Shown here piece after piece: positions 7,274 through 17,247 of a stretch of 64,000 nucleotides of DNA. The position numbers were made by a program, and so were the translations under genes. Within the stretch, counting starts at the first letter, position 1. Every line of letters begins with the position of its first letter. Under the pieces are notes generated by a model that saw only the letters and a program-made list of their open reading frames with translations, was not told the DNA's origin and did no database searches. The stretch comes from Candidatus Saccharimonadota bacterium. Its GTDB lineage: Bacteria; Patescibacteriota; Saccharimonadia; Saccharimonadales; OFTM59. Location: positions 6,018 through 70,017 of the forward strand of contig JAJDCK010000014.1 of NCBI GenBank assembly GCA_029260855.1. The letters run 5' to 3'.

Positions 7274-8289
7274 AATTACACAAAAATTCATTAAAGCTGT
7301 CCCTGGTCTATGTTTCGATTATTATGTTTATTAGTTTATTTTTTAGCATATCGCTCTATCGGTTGTCTATAAATGGTCTAGATCGAGGCCTTCGAAGGTC
7401 GCCTGGCGTCCCCCAGGGTATCAGAAGTCAATTGCCGCAAGAAATCCAAGCCGGGCTTGTCAGCGATCGTGAGCAGGCCTTTGAAGAAGCTCGACAGAAT
7501 ATCCTGTCGCAACTTGTTTCAATCAATTTGATGATTCTAGTGTCTGGCAGCCTATTTAGCTATTATTTGGCACTTCGCACGCTCCGTCCGATTGAAAATG
7601 CCAATCAGAATCTTGAGAATTTTACTGCTGATGCGAGCCATGAGCTGCGCACCCCCCTTGCATCGATGAGGTCCGAGATAGAAGTGGCGCTAAGCGATAG
7701 AAAGTTAAGCTTACCAGAAGCCAAATCATTGTTGTCTAGCAATCTAGAAGAAGTTGAAAAGCTAACAAATCTAACACAAGGTTTGCTGCGCCTAGCCCGG
7801 CTCAAACATAACGAAATTCCGATGGAAGACACATCGATCAGCGAACTTATAGATTCTTCAACCAAGGCCATTGAGAAGTCTGCCAAAGCTAAAAAAATTA
7901 AGCTTGAGATCAAAGCTACTTCAGGCTATGTGTCTTGCGAAAAGTCGAGTATTATTGAAGCTATCATGGCCTTGCTCGACAACGCAGTAAAGCATAGTCC
8001 TGTAGGCTCGCCAGTGGGGGTTGTTGCCACGAAGTCCGGGAGCTCACTGGAGATCGGAATAACAGACAATGGCCCGGGTATACGCCCGTCCGAAATACCA
8101 CATATTTTTGATCGCTTTTACCGATCTGATTTATCAAGGTCAAAAGCAGCAGATGACGGCTACGGTCTAGGGCTAGCTATTGCTAAAGACACAGTAGATG
8201 CTCATGGAGCTAGTCTTTCTGTCCAAAGTGAAGTCGGCAAAGGCAGCACCTTTAAAATAACCTTTCCCAAAAACATGATGAAGTTTTGA
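7270..8289 (+). CDS. sensor histidine kinase (HisKA + HATPase_c)
   Basis: 4-nt overlap with the RR. Two N-terminal TM segments. H-box FTADASHELRTPL, N-box LLDNAVKHSP, G-boxes DNGPGI and GYGLGLAI. Confidence 0.9.
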   Translation: MKLHKNSLKLSLVYVSIIMFISLFFSISLYRLSINGLDRGLRRSPGVPQGIRSQLPQEIQAGLVSDREQAFEEARQNILSQLVSINLMILVSGSLFSYYLALRTLRPIENANQNLENFTADASHELRTPLASMRSEIEVALSDRKLSLPEAKSLLSSNLEEVEKLTNLTQGLLRLARLKHNEIPMEDTSISELIDSSTKAIEKSAKAKKIKLEIKATSGYVSCEKSSIIEAIMALLDNAVKHSPVGSPVGVVATKSGSSLEIGITDNGPGIRPSEIPHIFDRFYRSDLSRSKAADDGYGLGLAIAKDTVDAHGASLSVQSEVGKGSTFKITFPKNMMKF

Positions 8290-8321
8290 TTACTACCGCC
8301 CGCCCCAAAAATTAGAGAATT

Positions 8322-9026
8322 AGGGTCTCACCCCATAGGAATGAGAAATAGTGTATAGTAACCTTGATGCCGGTTCGAAATGTTGTGCGATACCAAGCAG
8401 CTGACACAAACTATCACGTGTATAATCGTGGCCATAATGCTAGCAAGGTTTTTGTAGAAAACGATGATTATTTATACTTCGAATTCCTGCTCCAAAGATG
8501 CTTTGGACCGAAACAGCTAAAAACCAAGGACAATAAGCTATTCCCTTGGTTTGGCGATAAAGTCAGCCTTGTCGCCTTCTGTCTGATGCCCAACCACTTT
8601 CACCTTCTACTTTATCAAGGCGACCATACAACTGCTTTATCGAAAGCAATGCAAAGCCTAGCAACAACTTATTCAATGTACTTCAACAGGAAATACGGGC
8701 GCAGGGGATCTATTTTTGAAAGTGTTTTCAAATCATGTCTTGTCGCTAATGATTCATACCTTTTGCATATTACCCGATACATTCACCTGAATCCGAAAGA
8801 TCACAAACATTGGAGATATTCGAGCTATGGTGACTATATCAACCGCCCCCGTGACTGGGTAAAAACGAATGAAATTCTAACTATGTTCGATAGCAGCAAA
8901 GAATACGAGCAATTTATGGACGACTATAAAGATCTAAAAAATGAAATTGACGACCTAAAGTATCAGCTTGCTGATTACGCAACAACACATTAAACCATAA
9001 ATATAATATTTTGGGGTGAGACCCTG
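8322..9026 (+). mobile_element. REPtron-like unit: Y1 (HUH) transposase gene flanked by inverted 14-nt REP-like motifs
   Basis: AGGGTCTCACCCCA at 8322-8335 is the exact reverse complement of TGGGGTGAGACCCT at 9012-9025. A further copy (GTGAGACCCTG) sits at 9050-9060. Confidence 0.65.
8364..8993 (+). CDS. REP-associated tyrosine transposase (RayT)/IS200-like Y1 transposase family protein
   Basis: YHVYNRG, LMPNHFHLLL (HUH motif), RRGSIFE..FKS, TRYIHLNP (catalytic Tyr region). Probable ATG at 8367 with TATAGT 7 nt upstream. Confidence 0.8.
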   Translation: MMPVRNVVRYQAADTNYHVYNRGHNASKVFVENDDYLYFEFLLQRCFGPKQLKTKDNKLFPWFGDKVSLVAFCLMPNHFHLLLYQGDHTTALSKAMQSLATTYSMYFNRKYGRRGSIFESVFKSCLVANDSYLLHITRYIHLNPKDHKHWRYSSYGDYINRPRDWVKTNEILTMFDSSKEYEQFMDDYKDLKNEIDDLKYQLADYATTH

Positions 9027-9069
9027 TCTCCTGTCTCATGTATTTCGGTGTGAGACCCTGCTCGCTTAA

Positions 9070-9663
9070 TTATTGGACCCTGCCCAGTTTTGTCTTAATA
9101 CCATCGTGCCCAGAACACATTCCACGATAATCAGGCTTAGAAGGAGTGTCCTGATAACTGACTGAGCCGTCATTACAGATTGCCTTGAGCGGTAAATTAG
9201 AGCTTTCTTCAGCTACTGGTGCCGTGGTTTGACTAGGGCTACTTGAGTTTGTTGCTGCTTCTGCTGCTTTTCTTTGTGTTGCTGCCGCCGCTGCTGCTTC
9301 CTCTGCTATTTTTTTCTGAGCTTCTGTCTCTTGTGCTAATTTATCCGCAGCTTCCTTTTGTGCAATCTCTTCCGTCGCTTTTTTGGCTTCTAGCTCCTGC
9401 TGTTCTTTAGCTTGAGTGTCTTCTTGGCTTGTAAGGCTATTCTGCTGAGTGGTTTCTTCTGGCTGAGTCGTAGCTGCGCCAATCATAATGGGCAGCATAA
9501 TTAAAGCAATTACTGAGGTGAGTATAATCTTTACGTTTTTACTCCAGCTAGATTTTGCCCAAGCGTACCAAATTAAAAAATACGGAAAGAATAGAACTGT
9601 TACTAGCAGTCCCCAGCCGTGTTTGTACCATTCCTTTTTAGTGACCTGCATACTAATAGCCAT
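9070..9663 (-). CDS. membrane-anchored low-complexity protein with C-terminal DUF3761-like Cys motif
   Basis: N-terminal TM helices, an E/A/K/Q-rich linker, and a C-terminal ICNDGSVSYQ...GMCSGHDGI pattern. Confidence 0.6.
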   Translation of the reverse strand: MAISMQVTKKEWYKHGWGLLVTVLFFPYFLIWYAWAKSSWSKNVKIILTSVIALIMLPIMIGAATTQPEETTQQNSLTSQEDTQAKEQQELEAKKATEEIAQKEAADKLAQETEAQKKIAEEAAAAAATQRKAAEAATNSSSPSQTTAPVAEESSNLPLKAICNDGSVSYQDTPSKPDYRGMCSGHDGIKTKLGRVQ

Positions 9664-9797
9664 ATTTTACTTGTTCTACTTGATTATAGTAAATATTTAG
9701 TTTTGGATTTTGAAGAAACGAGGCTATCTTTAGAGTCTTTGCTGGCATCAATTCTGTCTTTGATCGCCATATAAAGTCCAGCTTTTACAGAATTACA

Positions 9798-9990
9798 GGG
9801 TGAGACCCTGCCCCGAGACTCTGCCCCTTTGCAGATTACGTAATAGCACACTAAACCATAAATATAATATTTTGGGGTGAGACCCTGCCCCCTGCCCCTT
9901 TGCAGATTACGTAATAGCACACTAAACCATAAATATAATATTTTGGGGTGAGACCCTGCCCCCTTGGGGTGAGACCCTGCCCCCTGCCCC
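9798..9990 (+). repeat. REP-like cluster: four GGGGTGAGACCCTGCCCC copies, including a perfect 71-bp tandem duplication (9821-9891 / 9892-9962)
   Basis: Motif copies at 9798-9810, 9874-9887, 9945-9958 and 9966-9979. The two 71-bp units are identical base for base by my reading. Each unit also carries a diverged copy of the last ~22 nt of the RayT-like ORF. Confidence 0.85.
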
Positions 9991-10495
9991 AGATACGCTT
10001 ATTGATGCAACAAGACAACGACAAGCTAAAAGGAACGGTTGAAGTAGATGAGACATTTATCGGTGGTAAGGCAAAAATGCACAACAAATATAAGAACAAA
10101 ACGGGCGTTTATGGCGTTACTGAAAGAGGCGGTCAAGCCAAGGCTCTAGTAGCTTACGGTGGAGTTAACGCCACTACCCGATTCCGTTCTTAAAAGCTAA
10201 CGTTAAGGAGGGTTCTAGGGTTATGAGTGACGAAAGTAAGATTTATAATCGGGTGAAGCGTGATTATACCCATGCTTTTGTGACTCATTCTAAGGAGCAA
10301 TACGTTAAAGGTGACATTCACACCAACTCAATTGAGGGGTTTTGGGGCAACATGAAAAATGCCATATCAGGCACTTATCATTGTGTTTCACCAAAGTATC
10401 TACAATCGTATGTAAACGAGTTTGTTTTTAGGTACAACTATAGAGCCGTGCCTATTTGCCCTTTGCTTTTGGAACGGGCTGTGAAGCTTTCTTGA
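9991..10495 (+). pseudogene. IS1595-family (ISXO2-like DDE) transposase remnant: N-terminally truncated and frameshifted
   Basis: LKGTVEVDETFIGGK ... GVTERGG in one frame. After a frameshift near 10170: PIPFLKANVKEGSRVMSDESKIYN ... HTNSIEGFWGNMK...YH.VSPKYLQ.YVNEF.FRYN. The REP cluster abuts the 5' break. Confidence 0.75.
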
Positions 10496-10515
10496 TTAGT
10501 CGTTTGAATAGTTTT

Positions 10516-11109
10516 TTACTCATCATTTCCTTCTATAGAATTTGCTTCTGTGTTAATTAGAATTTTTTGAAGGCCAACGTAAATGGTATTGATCTTCGTG
10601 AATAGTTCTTCTGTCTTGTCATTAATTATATCAATGTCTTTGCCCATTATCTCAAGACCCTTTGCGTCTGTGGTGGCAAAATTATGAAAGAGATTGTTAC
10701 GGCTCTTGGCGATGTCCGCTAGCAGATCCAACACACTATCTCTATCAGGAAAACTAAAGCTTTTGAGCATATCTATGATCGTATTCATTGTTGGTGGTCG
10801 TTTACCCCTGGTGTTTCTTAGATCAATAAAGACGATGCCTGCAAAATCTCTGTAAGTGGATTGGTAAACAAGGTGTCTTAGGTTTTCTAACAAGTTACCG
10901 GCAAGGTATTCGGCAAAACTAGAGTAAATCATTGCAGTCGCTAATCTGGTTTCAACCTCCTGCTTGTCACGAATAGACCTGGCATAGTTGATCAATTCAT
11001 TCTTAATCTCAAGATCATCATGTTCAAATGGTTTAAAGGTTTTCTTTGCCATATCTATATTGTATAGCAAACCACCCTGTCGTAACCAATCAGTCATTAT
11101 TCTTTCCAA
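10516..11109 (-). CDS. orphan protein with HEPN-type RNxxxH motif (possible start ATG 11097)
   Basis: 197 aa, visibly AT-rich. Motif AKSRNNLFHNF in a predicted helical context. No other recognisable domain. Confidence 0.55.
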   Translation of the reverse strand: MERIMTDWLRQGGLLYNIDMAKKTFKPFEHDDLEIKNELINYARSIRDKQEVETRLATAMIYSSFAEYLAGNLLENLRHLVYQSTYRDFAGIVFIDLRNTRGKRPPTMNTIIDMLKSFSFPDRDSVLDLLADIAKSRNNLFHNFATTDAKGLEIMGKDIDIINDKTEELFTKINTIYVGLQKILINTEANSIEGNDE

Positions 11110-11111
11110 TC

Positions 11112-11133
11112 AAAAAGAGAGCCGTAGCTCTCT
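11112..11133 (-). terminator. intrinsic terminator
   Basis: Minus-strand RNA AGAGAGC-UACG-GCUCUCU followed by UUUUUG. Confidence 0.65.
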
Positions 11134-11180
11134 GATTACAATTTAATATTGTTTACTTGCTGTAAGGGGATAGTCGCCTA

Positions 11181-11196
11181 GCTCCTGGGGCCGGAC
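11181..11196 (-). repeat. direct repeat of the tRNA-Asn 3' end (att-like scar)
   Basis: gctcctggggccggac at 11181-11196 is identical to 11352-11367 (T-stem 3' half plus acceptor 3' strand of tRNA-Asn). CCA is replaced by CTA. Confidence 0.7.
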
Positions 11197-11309
11197 AGCG
11201 CTTTCCCGCTTCGCTCGTCGCTTCTCCGCTCAAACAGGCTCAGTGCAAGTACTTGCGTGTGTTGTCGCTACGACGACCTCCGGTTCGAGACTCTGATTCT
11301 CAGAATCCT

Positions 11310-11349
11310 AAAGTAAAAGCCCCAACCAGAGCGGCTAGGGCTTTTACTT
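11310..11349 (-). terminator. 13-bp hairpin immediately after tRNA-Asn
   Basis: AAAGTAAAAGCCC ... GGGCTTTTACTTT. Confidence 0.6.
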
Positions 11350-11424
11350 TGGCTCCTGGGGCCGGACTCGAACCGGCAACCCTCTCGTTAACAGCGAGAT
11401 GCTCTACCATTGAGCTACCCAGGA
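11350..11424 (-). tRNA. tRNA-Asn (GTT), CCA encoded
   Basis: Hand-folded cloverleaf: acceptor UCCUGGG/CCCAGGA, D arm GCUC/GAGC, anticodon stem UCUCG/CGAGA with loop CUGUUAA, T arm GCCGG-UUCGAGU-CCGGC. Confidence 0.95.
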
Positions 11425-11658
11425 TTATCGTCCGTACTTTCACCTTCGCCGGCGCTCTTTAACAGGGGAAATCACTAAAGCCTATTTCTTGGTGAGCGCT
11501 TGCAAACCGGGTCGGACTAAAAGTACTCGCTTCCTCGTTACGGAAAGAGACGACTGACGAATTATAACTAGGGAGAGTTAAACTGGCAACTATCTGTTCC
11601 CTTATCTGCGTTTACTTAAAAGGTCCTGATTCGTGGCTTTGACAGCTTTTTGGATGGT

Positions 11659-12532: not shown

Positions 12533-12991
12533 TTATCTGTTCTTTACGGCAAATGCTATGCCGCGTTGTTCGTCGCGAGTTTTGAGAGTTTGGCGCTTGT
12601 CGTATTGCTTTTTGCCCCGCCCTGTTGCGATGCGTAGTTTTATATAGTGTCCGCGTGTAAGAAGCTCTAGCGGGATGAGCGTTAGCCCTTGCTGCTTTTT
12701 GGACATTAGCGTGTCAATCTCTTTGCGCTTGGCGAGCAACCGCCGGCTGCGGGTTTGGTCGGCCTCCGCAATCGGAATGCCCTTGTCGCCGTTGATGCTG
12801 GCGTTGACTAGCCAAAGCTGGTTGTCTTTGACGGTAACGTAAGCGCCGCGCAGCTGGCCGTGGCCGCGGCGTAATGACTTGGTCTCTGCGCCGGTCAGTT
12901 CTATTCCCACGACCAACTCATCACCCAATGCATATTCATGCCGGGCGCGACGATTGCTGATTGAGCCGCTTGGGCCTGTGCGCTTTTTCAT
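12533..12991 (-). CDS. smpB: SsrA-binding protein SmpB
   Basis: NRRARHEY.....E.G..L.G.E.KS.R ... KGY.L.PL.....G..K...A..RGKK.YDKR pattern. Confidence 0.95.
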   Translation of the reverse strand: MKKRTGPSGSISNRRARHEYALGDELVVGIELTGAETKSLRRGHGQLRGAYVTVKDNQLWLVNASINGDKGIPIAEADQTRSRRLLAKRKEIDTLMSKKQQGLTLIPLELLTRGHYIKLRIATGRGKKQYDKRQTLKTRDEQRGIAFAVKNR

Positions 12992-13029
12992 AACAGATTT
13001 ATTCTACCTTACTTAACCCCTTATGTATA

Positions 13030-13058
13030 TAGACAAACATTGACTGATGTGATATAAT
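13030..13058 (+). promoter_or_regulatory. sigma-70-type promoter with extended -10
   Basis: TAGACA, 17 nt spacer, TGATATAAT. ATG at 13067 lies 8 nt downstream of the -10. Confidence 0.55.
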
Positions 13059-13066
13059 AGCAGGAT

Positions 13067-13222
13067 ATGAGTGAAAGACTTTCTGTACGCCCTGTGATTC
13101 AGGATGACTATATCCGTGACTTGTGGGAACGTGATGGGCTGGCCCAAGAAGCTCATGCCCGGATCGCTGGCATGAGTTTGAGGGATATAGTTGATCGGAT
13201 GCCACCGGTACAATGGGATTGA
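13067..13222 (+). CDS. 51-aa ORF, in frame with 13334..14113 across a single TGA
   Basis: Own translation: MSERLSVRPVIQDDYIRDLWERDGLAQEAHARIAGMSLRDIVDRMPPVQWD-TGA. Below the ORF-track length cutoff. Confidence 0.45.
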   Translation: MSERLSVRPVIQDDYIRDLWERDGLAQEAHARIAGMSLRDIVDRMPPVQWD

Positions 13223-13333
13223 GTAGACGGGAACGCTAGGTATGTTGATCTGTGGCCGACCGACCGAGAGACATGTGATTCTGCCCGGGTCGTCGTCGCT
13301 ACCCTTGATTACGGCAATCTTTGGCAGCCCCAT

Positions 13334-14113
13334 ATGGCTATTCGCTTTTTGCACCTACAAACAAGCATGCCTGAACCAACACGTTTTATTATATTTCCGA
13401 ACAACGGGCTTAAAGATACGGCCTATAGCTTAAGCAAGCAGGAGAGGGCTAAGATTACTGAAACTGGAGATTTCTCTCCGATTGCGGTTCAGGAAATGAG
13501 AACACTAGACTATCTGCGCGTTACAGATGTCCGTCGAGCTGACTTTTCTCATGGGGCTGCTGTGGGCGCTGCCATGCTGAGGATGGCTTCGAAAGGCCAC
13601 TATAACCTTGGTCCGTCTGTATTTACCGAAGCGCCGAATGCCATCGCCCGTACAAATAAAGAAATCAGCAAAGCCTTCACCGGTGACGGCGTGAAGCCAT
13701 TAAATAAAGCTATCAATGACTCTGCGATACCAGCTTTTTCTGAGGCTCAACGAGCACGAGGCGGTGCGGTTGACACCTTGCGACAACTTGGTAGATTCGC
13801 GAATTTTGGCCTAGCCGTCTATGGCCGCGCAGAAAACCGGGCTATTGGTAGCGGCTACAAACTTCCCTGTTTTATTGGAGATGTAGAAATTGCGCTTTTA
13901 AATAACCCTGAATTGAAGGTGCTCTTCGTTGCCGGGCTTAAGAGTAAAATCATGAATCAAGCGGCCCGGTTGCGGGTAGAGGAGCTGCACGAACGTTTCC
14001 CCACTCGGACAGATTGTTTAGGGGTTGCGGGCTACGGACATGAGGTCGGCAATAATGTGGCTGCGTATACCATAATTGCCAAGCTCGGTCTCAGCGGGAA
14101 CTACCACAGTTAA
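13334..14113 (+). CDS. hypothetical protein (possibly the C-terminal part of a longer, interrupted gene)
   Basis: 259-aa ORF. The frame is open back to the TGA at 13220. DFSHGAAVG is weakly reminiscent of a hydrolase nucleophile elbow. Confidence 0.6.
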   Translation: MAIRFLHLQTSMPEPTRFIIFPNNGLKDTAYSLSKQERAKITETGDFSPIAVQEMRTLDYLRVTDVRRADFSHGAAVGAAMLRMASKGHYNLGPSVFTEAPNAIARTNKEISKAFTGDGVKPLNKAINDSAIPAFSEAQRARGGAVDTLRQLGRFANFGLAVYGRAENRAIGSGYKLPCFIGDVEIALLNNPELKVLFVAGLKSKIMNQAARLRVEELHERFPTRTDCLGVAGYGHEVGNNVAAYTIIAKLGLSGNYHS

Positions 14114-15204
14114 TTAGCGACCTTAGATCTGGTTATCACAGCCCTGCCGGCTTCCCAGAGAGCAGGTTCGCCACGTTTTTCTTTCATGTAATACCACCAC
14201 TCCACTCCCCATAGGTCAATACGGCGGATGCCGGTAGCGACGGCGTAGTCTAAGCGGTCTTCTAGGCGTTCTGGATTCATGGATTTATACAACTCATCTG
14301 TCGAGGCTGTGTCCATAGTGAATCCATCTGGTAGCCATGATTCAGCCTGTAGCTCGTGGATGATCATATCGCTGCCGTGTAGTAGCTTGTTCCAGCCGGC
14401 CAGGTTGGCGTAAAACCAGGCCGGAAAAGGATACTCAACATATCGTTTGGTAATAGTGCGGTCCCAAACTCGTTTATATACTGATACAGCACTGACATCA
14501 GGGCGTGGTTCACCCACAGCCCAGCCAAGCGCGTTGTTGCTGCGACTGATGATTAGCGGTCTGGTATTGTCTAGGCTTTTGACCATATCGTATTCGGCTA
14601 TTAACCGTTCACGGCTGTAATCTGGGCAGATGCCAAAAGGTCTTAGGAAATACTCGTTCTCTAGCTGCCAGCTCTCTATGATGGGACTATTTTTATAACG
14701 CTCAACAGTTGCGCGGATGTAATCCATGAGTGGTTGCTCCCACTCGCTTTTTGGGAGAGGTCTTGCCCAGTCTGGCATGTGGCACTCTGGCCAACGCGGC
14801 TGGCGAAGTCCGATTGCAAGCGATACGCTAACACCCTCTCTTTTAGCTTTTTCAAGTTGCCAATCCAAAAAAGAAAAGTCATAGCTGCCACGCTCTTTTT
14901 CGCCCTCGGACCAATAGCTAACAAGGCGCATATGCTTGATGCCCAGGTCGTTTATGGTGGCGTCAAGAGTCTCTTCTGCGCTTAGGCCGAACGATTCTGC
15001 GTAGCCAGGAATAAATGTAGCACCAAAAACTAACGGCTTGTTTTGGTTTTTAAGGATATACCACTGCGCAATCCCGTACATACCACTGACAAAAAGCAAC
15101 ACAAAGACAGACAAACAGATTCCGGCCCTTTGCCATAGCCCGCGGCGCCAGTAGTGTTTTAGTCGTAAAATAGCCCTTGTTTGCTTTCTGTGCGAGTTTT
15201 TCAT
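14110..15204 (-). CDS. membrane-anchored TIM-barrel glycoside hydrolase-like protein (clan GH-A)
   Basis: N-terminal TM. WQLENEY (acid/base NE) and HELQAESW (candidate nucleophile) spaced as in the GH5/GH42-type fold. Confidence 0.6.
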   Translation of the reverse strand: MKNSHRKQTRAILRLKHYWRRGLWQRAGICLSVFVLLFVSGMYGIAQWYILKNQNKPLVFGATFIPGYAESFGLSAEETLDATINDLGIKHMRLVSYWSEGEKERGSYDFSFLDWQLEKAKREGVSVSLAIGLRQPRWPECHMPDWARPLPKSEWEQPLMDYIRATVERYKNSPIIESWQLENEYFLRPFGICPDYSRERLIAEYDMVKSLDNTRPLIISRSNNALGWAVGEPRPDVSAVSVYKRVWDRTITKRYVEYPFPAWFYANLAGWNKLLHGSDMIIHELQAESWLPDGFTMDTASTDELYKSMNPERLEDRLDYAVATGIRRIDLWGVEWWYYMKEKRGEPALWEAGRAVITRSKVAN

Positions 15205-15219
15205 CTATACTTGTTGCTA

Positions 15220-16029
15220 ATGCCCGAAAATAATACAAGCTTGAGCATAATCATACCAGCTTACAATGAACAGCACCATCTCAAGGCGTGTTTGGATGCT
15301 ATAGCTGTTCAAACCGATAGGCCCGATGAGGTGATTGTAGTTGATAATAATTCTAATGATGCTACAGCTGAGATAGCGAGATCTTACAAATTTGTTAGGC
15401 TGTTGCGCGAGTCGCGTCAGGGTGTGGTCTTTGCCCGGGACTGCGGGTTTAACGCCGCCAAGAGCAGCCTTTTGGGGCGGATAGATGCCGATACGGTCTT
15501 GCCGCCGGATTGGGTAGAGCGTGTTAAAGGTTTTTACGCGGATCAACAACACAGTACTTATGCGTTGACGGGTGGTTGCTTTTTCTATAATGTACGGTGT
15601 CCACGTCTAGCTAGGTGGTGGCAGGGCCAGATTGCGTTCCGTGCTAACAGGCTCCTTATGGGGCATTACATACTTTTTGGCTCAAATATGGCTATGCCAC
15701 AACACTTGTGGAAATCGGTTAAGGATAAAGTCTGTCACATACCAGATGTTCACGAAGACCTTGACTTGGCTATACATGTTCACGAATTTGGATACGAAAT
15801 AACCTACCTTGAAAACTTGCGTGTAGGAGTCAAAATGCGTCGTGTACGGTCTAATCAAGCTGAGCTTTGGAGCAATATGATGTGGTGGCCTAGAACCTTG
15901 CGCAAACACGGAAAAAGAACTTGGCCACTTGGCTTGCTCGGCGCTCTAATCCTGTATATCGGCGCTCCAGCAGTTATTGTTGCAGAACTCCTAGCCCGCC
16001 TAGTCGGTCGACCTCCCCTAGATGAATAA
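15220..16029 (+). CDS. family 2 glycosyltransferase
   Basis: LSIIIPAYNE, VIVVDNNSND, RIDADT motifs. Start at ATG 15220 with TATACT 8 nt upstream. Confidence 0.85.
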   Translation: MPENNTSLSIIIPAYNEQHHLKACLDAIAVQTDRPDEVIVVDNNSNDATAEIARSYKFVRLLRESRQGVVFARDCGFNAAKSSLLGRIDADTVLPPDWVERVKGFYADQQHSTYALTGGCFFYNVRCPRLARWWQGQIAFRANRLLMGHYILFGSNMAMPQHLWKSVKDKVCHIPDVHEDLDLAIHVHEFGYEITYLENLRVGVKMRRVRSNQAELWSNMMWWPRTLRKHGKRTWPLGLLGALILYIGAPAVIVAELLARLVGRPPLDE

Positions 16030-17247
16030 TTATTCAGTGTCCATAAACATTCTTAAGAAGTTCATTAAAGGATTTGGCCTATTGCTGTTACGACGCATAG
16101 CCTCTGCGAATGCCGGGATGTCATCCATCTTACCGACTTCAATATCCACCCCACGTTGTTTGAGTAATGCCCGCATGAATTCTATGTGAATCTCCGGCAC
16201 CAGAATCAGGCCAATATCCTCAAGAGCAATACCTCCACGCACTACTACTTCTCCGGAAAGACCTTGCGGTATGAAGGTCTTATCGTTGATACTATTCCTC
16301 TTTTTACCAATACTTAAACCATCATCAAAGAATCTGCTGCTGTCATCCCAGACAGCATGTTGTTTAACAGCGTATGCTATCCCGAAACAATCTTTAACCA
16401 AAGACAATTTAAGCTTTTCTTCCAATGTTGTTGGTGTAGTAGCGTGGTAATCTCTGCGCGCTTCCAAATGCGGTAGAGCTGCCCTAAGGATTTTAATGAG
16501 TCCCCCGTATCCCTCTGGCTGGGTCATTGCTTTTCGGCCGAACTCAATCGCATTACTTAATTCTTCTTCAGTGACTTGTCCATAAAAGTAGCGCGTGATG
16601 GAGGATAGGCTGTGATTATAGAGAGTCGCACAGCTGACACCATCTTTGACTGAAGAGCTGGCATCATGAGCCCCGGAAAATATAGGAATCCCTTTTTCAA
16701 CAAGTTTATTAAACGGCAGTAAACCTTGCTCTAAGACGGACAATAAGCTGGCTGAAGTAGTGGCGTGAATTCCCCAAATTTTATTGCGAATAAAGGATTC
16801 GGCTAGCGCAGGATTCTGCCCGTATATGTTCAAAAGCACTATTCGCTCTTCCGAAGGGAGGGCTGCATTATCAATAAAAGGCTCATGGATACGAGACGGT
16901 TCTTTTAATAGCACAGATATGGTAGTAGTTTCATCCCATAACGTGTGATTTTTTACAGCGCTGGCAGTAGCAAGGGTTGTGACGTCTGAAATAAAAGCGC
17001 CTTGAGCTTCTGGCGTGGCACAATTATGCCAAGCAGGACTCTCAAATACATGATCAACAGCTCTCATCAGTCCTTTTTCTCGGGTCTCCATGTCATTCAT
17101 CAGGACTTCATCATCAATTGGGGAAAATGGACGCCTCCATGCTCGCTCATGCTCGTCCCCTAACCATTGAGCGGCATAGCAGGTTCGAACAAATTCCTGT
17201 GCTTCTCGGGTGCTAATAGCCGCCTGTTTCTCGCCAAACTCACTCAT
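16030..17247 (-). CDS. 405-aa orphan protein
   Basis: Long ORF. TGGTATAAT lies 7 nt upstream of the ATG. No confidently recognisable domain. Confidence 0.75.
   Translation of the reverse strand: MSEFGEKQAAISTREAQEFVRTCYAAQWLGDEHERAWRRPFSPIDDEVLMNDMETREKGLMRAVDHVFESPAWHNCATPEAQGAFISDVTTLATASAVKNHTLWDETTTISVLLKEPSRIHEPFIDNAALPSEERIVLLNIYGQNPALAESFIRNKIWGIHATTSASLLSVLEQGLLPFNKLVEKGIPIFSGAHDASSSVKDGVSCATLYNHSLSSITRYFYGQVTEEELSNAIEFGRKAMTQPEGYGGLIKILRAALPHLEARRDYHATTPTTLEEKLKLSLVKDCFGIAYAVKQHAVWDDSSRFFDDGLSIGKKRNSINDKTFIPQGLSGEVVVRGGIALEDIGLILVPEIHIEFMRALLKQRGVDIEVGKMDDIPAFAEAMRRNSNRPNPLMNFLRMFMDTE

Follow-up and report, generated by a model that had tools for sequence, protein, structure and literature searches.

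What kind of element is formed by an HUH/Y1 transposase gene and the inverted repeats on either side of it, at 8305-9086 of a 64-kb stretch of contig JAJDCK010000014.1 (the whole stretch analysed, hereafter the window)? A first-pass annotation had called this locus REPtron-like, meaning a RayT/IS200-like tyrosine transposase gene between inverted repetitive extragenic palindromic (REP) motifs. Among domesticated bacterial transposases, the RAYT and TIRYT systems are the best-known example and, to our knowledge, the largest RAYT branch (subclass 2.1, or Group 1) has no known function. We find that the locus is a RAYT-like/TIRtron-type element of a short clade that lacks the helix-turn-helix (HTH) domain, and neither an IS200 copy nor a canonical REPtron. 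Its most likely nature, in our judgement, is that of a compact, single-copy resident RAYT/TIRYT element with REPtron/TIRtron architecture.

The gene is predicted to encode an intact RAYT-like enzyme

The gene and its flanks comprise the following features.

8364-8993, forward strand: open reading frame (ORF) of 209 amino acids (aa) from a TTG start
8367-8993, forward strand: HUH/Y1 gene, RAYT-like with subclass-2.1/TIRYT-like signatures, 208 aa (MPVRN...) from an ATG start
8305-8335, forward strand: left terminal inverted repeat, with a 30-nt imperfect arm (8305-8334) and the perfect core AGGGTCTCACCCCA (8322-8335)
8323-8333, forward strand: left hairpin GGGT-CTC-ACCC, inside the left repeat
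8354-8359, forward strand: -10 box TATAGT, 7 nt before the ATG
9012-9037, forward strand: inner right repeat, with core TGGGGTGAGACCCT (9012-9025), a hairpin (9014-9024) and then CTGTCTC twice (9024-9037)
9047-9086, forward strand: outer right repeat, of which 9047-9076 has the degenerate core GGTGTGAGACCC, with a motif copy at 9049-9060
9076-9085, forward strand: half-copy GACCCTGCCC, directly after the outer right repeat

Homologues begin MP(V/G)RN, so we place the true start at the ATG at 8367, which gives a protein of 208 aa. The HUH motif (LMPNHFHLLL) and tyrosine region (TRYIHLNP) that the first-pass annotation had named in the 209-aa frame are indeed present, and the shorter protein retains both CLMPNHFHLLL and ITRYIHLNP. 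The HUH pair is H77-F-H79, the catalytic tyrosine is Y138 in RYIHLNP and the tail motif is SSY (WRYSSY). Across 35 homologues H77, H79, Y138 and N142 are invariant, and conservation spans the whole length. Y1_Tnp (PF01797) was the sole Pfam domain found in the protein (34.7 bits, gathering cutoff 23), and the only NCBIfam match was the RayT equivalog NF047646, at 42.3 bits against a cutoff of 80; none of the IS200 models of NCBIfam matched at E <= 0.01.

An AlphaFold2 model of the protein, with a predicted local distance difference test score (pLDDT) of 90.4, ends in a single long helix (residues 177-204). When this model was compared with the PDB by Foldseek, the top 29 matches were Y1 transposases throughout. 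Escherichia coli RayT with a REP hairpin (4ER8) came first (E = 4.7e-6, TMt 0.64), and the IS608, ISDra2 and IS200 TnpA structures ranked below it. Sequence searches of the PDB, whether with the single protein or with a 35-sequence profile, were uninformative, giving no meaningful match, so that the protein is linked to RayT and TnpA structures by the fold search only. Judged from its sequence and modelled fold, the ORF encodes an intact class-2 (Y...NP) enzyme of the HUH/Y1 type on the RAYT-like branch, with a complete set of catalytic residues.

Motifs and pairwise scores point to subclass 2.1 as the closest known group. Subclass 2.1 of Quentin et al. (2018) is the same as Group 1 of Bertels and the TIRYT of Di Nocera et al. 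(2013) (PMC6006769, PMC5581495, PMC3733652). Its signatures are an HuH motif NHVH or NH[YF]H, a Y motif YIELNP or Y[IV]HLNP and an SS tail motif (PMC6006769), for which the window protein has NHFH, YIHLNP and WRYSSY. Against a profile of the family, E. coli RayT scored 11 bits, compared with 99-105 bits for three plasmid-borne relatives. These relatives, from Pseudomonas aeruginosa, Legionella adelaidensis and Sporomusa termitida, show 31-38% identity and carry NH[VY]H, Y..(L/Q)NP and (S/T)S(Y/H); two of the three (L268, L269) have a weak DnaA_C-like HTH tail, as in subclass 2.1. The Sporomusa and P. aeruginosa relatives are themselves flanked by inverted repeats with GGGGTCAG and GGGGACAG. 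The window protein also has a clade-specific insertion of ~15 aa after helix A.

A perfect inverted pair and further motif copies surround the gene

The 14-nt pair that the first-pass annotation had described holds at every position: AGGGTCTCACCCCA (8322-8335) and TGGGGTGAGACCCT (9012-9025) are complementary at 14 of 14 nt. The extra copies that it had listed near 9050-9060 and, four in number, up to 9979 were likewise recovered. Searching the window with GGTGAGACCCTG at no more than one mismatch gave seven matches where 0.11 were expected, and none of 100 shuffles reached seven. The first-pass annotation had not recognised this motif, which does match a published one, since GGGGTGAG fits the GGGGWSAS that many TIRtron inverted repeats have in common (PMC3733652).

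The 30-nt left arm finds its best partner in the outer right copy (9047-9076, 73% complementary), which makes 9012-9025 the inner right copy. The outer flank of the outer right repeat, CTTAATTATTGG, is similar to the right end of the homologous locus L002 and to the window's own left end, and the left motif stands at equal distance from the start codon in L002, L011, L187 and L004. By inspection, there was no target-site duplication outside the 30-nt inverted arms. A looser search with GGGTNNNACCC gave nothing convincing in the remaining ~62 kb of the window, and an Rfam scan of 8000-11600 returned a tRNA-Asn only, the rest being sub-threshold noise. In viral contigs scanned with TGGGGTGAGACCCT there were 81 single matches without clustering, and GGGTGAGACCCTGCCCC gave 93 single matches in a species-representative genome collection that does not contain the window's genome; we read both sets as chance. 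Those of the GGGTGAGACCCTGCCCC matches that were checked lie at 56-73% G+C, and none is named Saccharibacteria.

Covarying palindromes recur around homologues

A word-indexed search gave more than 1000 relatives of ~205 aa, and an exhaustive search 18,476 cluster representatives at E <= 1e-3, or 6,201 at E <= 1e-10. Named relatives were Saccharibacteria/Saccharimonadales or an unclassified "bacterium", with one exception (P0025, labelled Nevskiaceae bacterium). From these names we take the window to be probably of Saccharibacteria as well. From the homologues we assembled 93 loci, 80 of which are metagenome loci and taxonomically unassigned. For the 73 loci with both flanks, the 130 nt on either side of the gene were compared and the highest-scoring inverted repeat between them was taken; in 55 loci its score exceeded that of the top one of 30 shuffles by 4 or more. 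We also checked whether most orthologous loci had lost their flanking repeats, and they had not.

The palindrome has the consensus CAAGG-N5-CCTTG (CAAGG-WC-N-GW-CCTTG), of which CAAGGTCTGACCTTG is an example with a strong hairpin. Its inner GG/CC pairs are near-invariant and its outer stem covaries, positions 8-11 being 64-85% Watson-Crick with all four pair types, compared with 26-41% in shuffled controls and 10-28% when the partner was slid by one. Spacing is conserved: the centre of the upstream hairpin is a median of 39 nt from the ATG, and that of the downstream hairpin 18 nt from the stop. Doublets form 33-nt perfect palindromes in L007, L190, L211 and L252. The window's own motif is kept in close relatives (58-64% identical), and the flanked arrangement, with covarying palindromes, recurs around homologues 32-68% identical. 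This recurrence shows that the arrangement is not a local accident.

In some loci, L201 among them, a direct loop goes with inverted outer flanks.

The left hairpin overlaps a candidate leaderless promoter

A -10 box agreeing at five or more of six positions was found in 37 of 49 loci, and in 32 of the 49 it lay 6-8 nt before the ATG. With the box so close to the start codon, the mRNA would probably be leaderless or near-leaderless, and in the window TATAGT would be the functional promoter of such a transcript. The left hairpin covers the -35/spacer region and so overlaps the promoter; in several members its right half provides TTGACA or TTGCAA (TTGACA in L255, L227, L248 and L239). A scan of 8200-10100 gave four promoter-like calls against 3.6 +/- 1.7 in shuffles, and three terminator-like calls against 1.4 +/- 1.1. 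The sole terminator-like call that touches the repeats, at 9050-9065, takes in the outer right copy and its flank, with a GTGAG/CTCGC stem and a T-poor tail. In the same scan the left and inner right repeats had no terminator-like call, and the GGGT/ACCC stem was not called.

Tandem duplications lie beside the hairpins

The outer flanks of the hairpins contain tandem duplications of the hairpin's outer half together with its flank. In the window the units are CTGTCTC, CTGCCCC and CTAATT, each present twice (9024-9037, 9887-9900 and 8306-8322). Comparable units are GGATAAAGGGTCTC twice in L002 (9938-9967), GAGACCCTACCGGGGC twice in L011 (10656-10687), CAGACCYTGGAAAC four times and CATCCAGG three times in L004 (9940-9965 and 10654-10718), and CTTATCCC twice in L003 (10663-10680). 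Under a strict criterion (period 8-20 nt, two copies, at most one mismatch), such duplications were present in 16 of 98 outer flanks and in 44 of 2187 control windows (2%; p = 1e-9), the controls being random windows from the same loci and mostly coding. This criterion replaced a laxer test with periods from 6 nt, which gave 21% positive controls.

E. coli TnpA-REP requires C|T and assembles tandem units in vitro by cleavage and strand transfer (PMC3333891). With a suitable choice of phase, the units described above start right behind ACC(C)|T, which recalls that requirement; as a tandem repeat has no unique phase, we treat the match as a lead and not a result. A reading of the units as exact C|T cleavage products is likewise no more than a lead, and under it the 7-mers of the window would be inexact.

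One further set of motif copies lies downstream.

9796-9990, forward strand: four-copy motif array, all in right-end orientation (9796-9810, CAGGGTGAGACCCTG; 9873-9886; 9944-9957; 9965-9978), with motif matches at 9799-9810, 9876-9887, 9947-9958 and 9968-9979

Inside the array, a 71-nt unit stands in perfect tandem (9821-9891 and 9892-9962). Each unit opens with 27 nt coding FADYVIAH*, with 6 mismatches in 27 to the resident C-terminus LADYATTH*, and its next 35 nt match the stop codon, A/T-rich spacer and motif of the resident gene at every position. Since the right end is identical throughout whereas the coding remnant has six mismatches, the right end has been kept or homogenised more strictly, and such uneven divergence points to a right end that is under constraint or subject to gene conversion. 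The presence of a diverged 3' gene fragment with a right end implies that a second gene copy once existed. The exact duplication of the 71-nt unit may be an assembly artefact.

One gene copy per locus, in a context that is constant within species

No second copy of the gene was found in the 64-kb window or within 10 kb on either side of the gene in the 93 loci, each of which gave one tblastn match. No contig appeared twice among the 80 metagenome loci listed, which include four contigs of 0.26-1.04 Mb. For the identical proteins P0037, P0050, P0023 and P0016, neighbours were unchanged in every place shown (3-10 places of up to 24 contigs, with 24 contigs each for P0037 and P0050). The P0037 gene lies within a type IV pilus cluster, between the pilin and prepilin peptidase genes (L007-L009, 10001-10621), at an identical position in all three places shown. 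The P0050 gene lies just upstream of parA-parB (L271-L280), identically in 10 of 10 places shown. Gene neighbourhood thus differs between species and is constant within them.

Palindrome copies without a gene also exist. More than 200 nt from the gene we counted 15 in 498 kb, where shuffled cores gave 0.7. This amounts to ~1 for every 35 kb of flank, and the copies are limited to 10 of 49 loci. Such solo copies are intergenic in L004 and L010, and those of L004 retain left-end flanks and short tandem repeats. In the genome of the window itself, a Logan contig (L001) ends in the right-end repeat, 27 bp past the gene; given the three right-end copies present locally, the break is uninformative on dispersal.

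The region beyond the element

Three further features lie downstream of the gene.

9070-9663, reverse strand: convergent gene of 197 aa, with N-terminal hydrophobic segments that are probably membrane-spanning and an Ala/Glu/Lys/Gln-rich middle
9991-10495: N-terminally truncated IS1595-family (ISXO2-like) transposase remnant, in two ORFs (9948-10193 and 10223-10495)
11350-11424, reverse strand: tRNA-Asn (GTT) gene, 1.4 kb beyond the array

The array lies ~700 bp past the outer right repeat, beyond the convergent gene, whose last codons overlap that repeat and whose 197-aa product had weak TolA-like, low-complexity matches only. The IS1595 remnant adjoins the array: either the array replaced the 5' part of the remnant, or the insertion sequence (IS) inserted beside a hairpin. 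Besides the Y1 element and the IS1595 remnant, 8300-11300 contains two ORFs that could not be annotated; this interval is a possible integration hotspot.

Proposed mechanism and alternative explanations

We propose that a left hairpin overlapping the promoter, a leaderless HUH/Y1 gene and at least one inverted right hairpin repeat together make up the element. If it works as E. coli TnpA-REP and IS608 TnpA do, the enzyme would bind the hairpin in single-stranded DNA, cut beside it through a 5'-phosphotyrosine intermediate and rejoin the strands. Rare events of cutting and rejoining could have produced both the local amplification at 9796-9990 and the solo copies in related genomes. The geometry of the left end suggests that enzyme bound at this hairpin probably autoregulates the promoter. 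The gene itself would be a resident, probably kept vertically or domesticated, and not a proliferating IS.

It is improbable that the locus is an ordinary active IS of the IS200/IS605 type, whose gene and ends move as a unit and are multi-copy. Such an IS would account for the variation of neighbourhoods between species, for the many homologues on short contigs and for the position of the element, next to an IS1595 remnant and close to a tRNA gene, where mobile DNA is typically found. The diverged 3' fragment and right end at 9821-9962 imply a past second copy, and the Logan contig of the same genome is broken just after the gene. However, that break is explained by the three local right-end copies; neither the window nor the 93 loci yielded a second gene copy and no metagenome contig was listed twice; and identical proteins keep one context in every place shown, over dozens of samples. 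The protein, too, speaks against an IS of this type, with Y...NP instead of Y...Q, 208 aa instead of ~150 and no tnpB (PMC6006769), as does the lack of an NCBIfam IS200 match. A different possibility, also unlikely, is that the protein is a domesticated, vertically inherited HUH nuclease with a host function on single-stranded DNA, for which the hairpin would be an operator and a rarely copied signal. The gene would then have been kept across Saccharibacteria and related ultra-small genomes that otherwise shed selfish DNA, for roles such as processing at replication forks or during natural transformation.

We give as little credence to the palindromes being transcription signals, an operator upstream and a terminator or mRNA-stabilising stem downstream, with a separate host function for the HUH protein. 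The upstream palindrome is indeed fixed over the -35/spacer region of a probably leaderless promoter, often supplying TTGNNN, the downstream one follows the stop by 0-25 nt, and the gene is single-copy at a fixed locus. Yet one and the same palindrome stands on either side of the gene; it has no T-tract, and the GGGT/ACCC stem gave no terminator call. Gene-less intergenic copies at 20 times the expected number, tandem half-site duplications and an amplified 71-nt unit beside hairpins also disagree with this explanation, and solved relatives bind such hairpins as single-stranded DNA substrates (PMC3479197). Very improbable is a decaying relic whose motif copies arose by local slippage or rearrangement around the IS1595 and have no current tie to the protein. 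Every copy lies within 1.7 kb, the hairpin is weak, a truncated IS1595 adjoins and the perfect 71-nt tandem could be slippage or an assembly artefact; but the ORF is intact with invariant catalytic residues, and inverted flanks and spacing are conserved at 32-68% identity, with compensatory changes. In addition, the 35-nt right end, identical throughout beside a coding fragment with 6 of 27 mismatches, indicates constraint or homogenisation.

Several points weigh against the reading that we prefer, that of a resident RAYT/TIRYT element. All seven motif copies lie inside 8321-9979, or 1.7 kb of the 64 kb scanned, so within the DNA available the motif is confined to the locus, which the first-pass annotation had held to be the mark of a simple local duplication. 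The window hairpin, GGGT-GAG-ACCC, has a 4-bp stem of ~-2.5 kcal/mol, not better than shuffles. Folding, which that annotation had proposed as a check, therefore gave a divided answer: a 4-bp hairpin is possible, but only the copy at 9796-9810 folds well (6-bp stem, -5.4 kcal/mol, z = -2.45). Among the family, the two hairpins that flank a gene have inverted loops in 21 loci (such as L255, L206 and L010) and direct loops in 17 (such as L196, L215 and L241), counted over the 38 orientable loci of 39 examined; strict REPtron geometry is thus no family rule, although the window's clade conforms to it. In the window, GGGGWSAS points away from the gene, with its GGGG end facing it, but in L267 and L269 it points towards the gene; with a nearly palindromic core we do not give this difference much weight, yet it keeps the match to the TIRtron repeat tentative. 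Quentin et al. found no REP-like sequences for subclass 2.1 (PMC6006769), and the window protein, at 208 aa, is without the C-terminal HTH domain typical of that subclass. Our subclass call was made from motifs and pairwise scores, not with the authors' hidden Markov models or a phylogeny, and single-strand endonuclease activity is ascribed to this family by analogy.

A short HTH-less clade with clean covarying hairpins would offer a minimal system for substrate recognition and cutting, and a hairpin fixed over a leaderless promoter lends itself to testing for autoregulation by the enzyme. The clade also bears on the persistence of such genes in very reduced genomes.

Comparison with known systems

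With the E. coli REPtron (RayT, also TnpA-REP or YafM) the locus shares a single-copy Y1 gene between inverted hairpin repeats, the Y...NP motif and repeat units amplified in tandem beside the gene, as in arrays of bacterial interspersed mosaic elements (BIMEs). The two proteins are only ~20% identical, however, and the window protein has the HuH motif NHFH where E. coli RayT and its like have EHMH or DHLH. Canonical REPs are imperfect palindromes with a 5' GT[AG]G foot (PMC6006769, PMC3333891), whereas the window motif has no such foot and forms a perfect 4-bp stem with no mismatch or bulge. Nor is there evidence of hundreds of dispersed copies, the 64 kb having none outside 8321-9979. Of the REPtron label given by the first-pass annotation, the inverted, hairpin-capable flanks therefore stand, but the motif is not a canonical REP. 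Canonical RayT (subclass 2.2) was ruled out by the 42.3 bits to the RayT model, below its cutoff of 80, and the 11 bits of E. coli RayT.

Elements of the IS200/IS605 family (IS608, ISDra2, IS200) resemble the locus in their HUH/Y1 fold, in the hairpins by both gene ends and in a compact layout with the left end near the promoter. Their TnpA proteins (subclass 1.1) have Y---Q, an HuH motif DH[VI]H and a core of ~150 aa only (PMC6006769); the window element differs in its Y...NP, longer protein and inverted-repeat ends. No tnpB-like neighbour was present among the ORFs of the window or the neighbours of the homologous loci read. Identity as an IS200/IS605 TnpA was ruled out by YIHLNP, NHFH, the length of 208 aa and the missing NCBIfam IS200 match. 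By sequence, then, the protein does not group with ordinary IS200/IS605 TnpA, as the first-pass annotation had allowed it might, and of its description as RayT/IS200-like we keep RAYT-like (Y...NP, best fold match 4ER8), but neither IS200-like nor canonical RayT.

In a relevance-ranked literature search, none of the top-ranked papers joined bacteria of the candidate phyla radiation (CPR) with RAYT, TnpAREP or TIRYT, and a Saccharibacteria transposon-sequencing (Tn-seq) paper has nothing on this gene. Among the plasmid relatives, that of P. aeruginosa (L267, NZ_CP116719.1) resembles a multi-copy TIRtron relative: its 24-kb record has three protein matches, and five copies of the 22-nt AAAGGGGACAGATYTATTTTCC lie in 3.4 kb (12781-16248) around a Y1 gene of 230 aa, with a DNA/RNA non-specific endonuclease gene adjoining.

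The closest likeness is to TIRtrons. Beyond the protein motifs, the locus shares with them a low-copy gene and gene-less repeat copies that are sparse or moderately abundant, and its terminal inverted repeats fit GGGGWSAS in sequence (GGGGTGAG in the window, GGGGTCAG in L004), although the orientation differs from that in L267 and L269. The sparse solo copies are like the moderately abundant TIRtron repeats (PMC3733652) and unlike the hundreds of true REPs; the flanking 16-mers of Group 1 RAYTs occur ~12 times genome-wide (PMC5581495). Differences from TIRYTs are the ~15-aa insertion of the window clade, flanks that in most clade members are true palindromic hairpins, and a host lineage, probably Saccharibacteria/CPR, that is absent from the published TIRYT and RAYT surveys. 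Subclass 2.1 proteins, moreover, have a C-terminal HTH-like domain (DnaA_C, HTH_23 or HTH_28) and a median length of 238 aa (PMC6006769), and the window clade is shorter. The locus is thus a new lineage of an already described arrangement and not a new kind of system.

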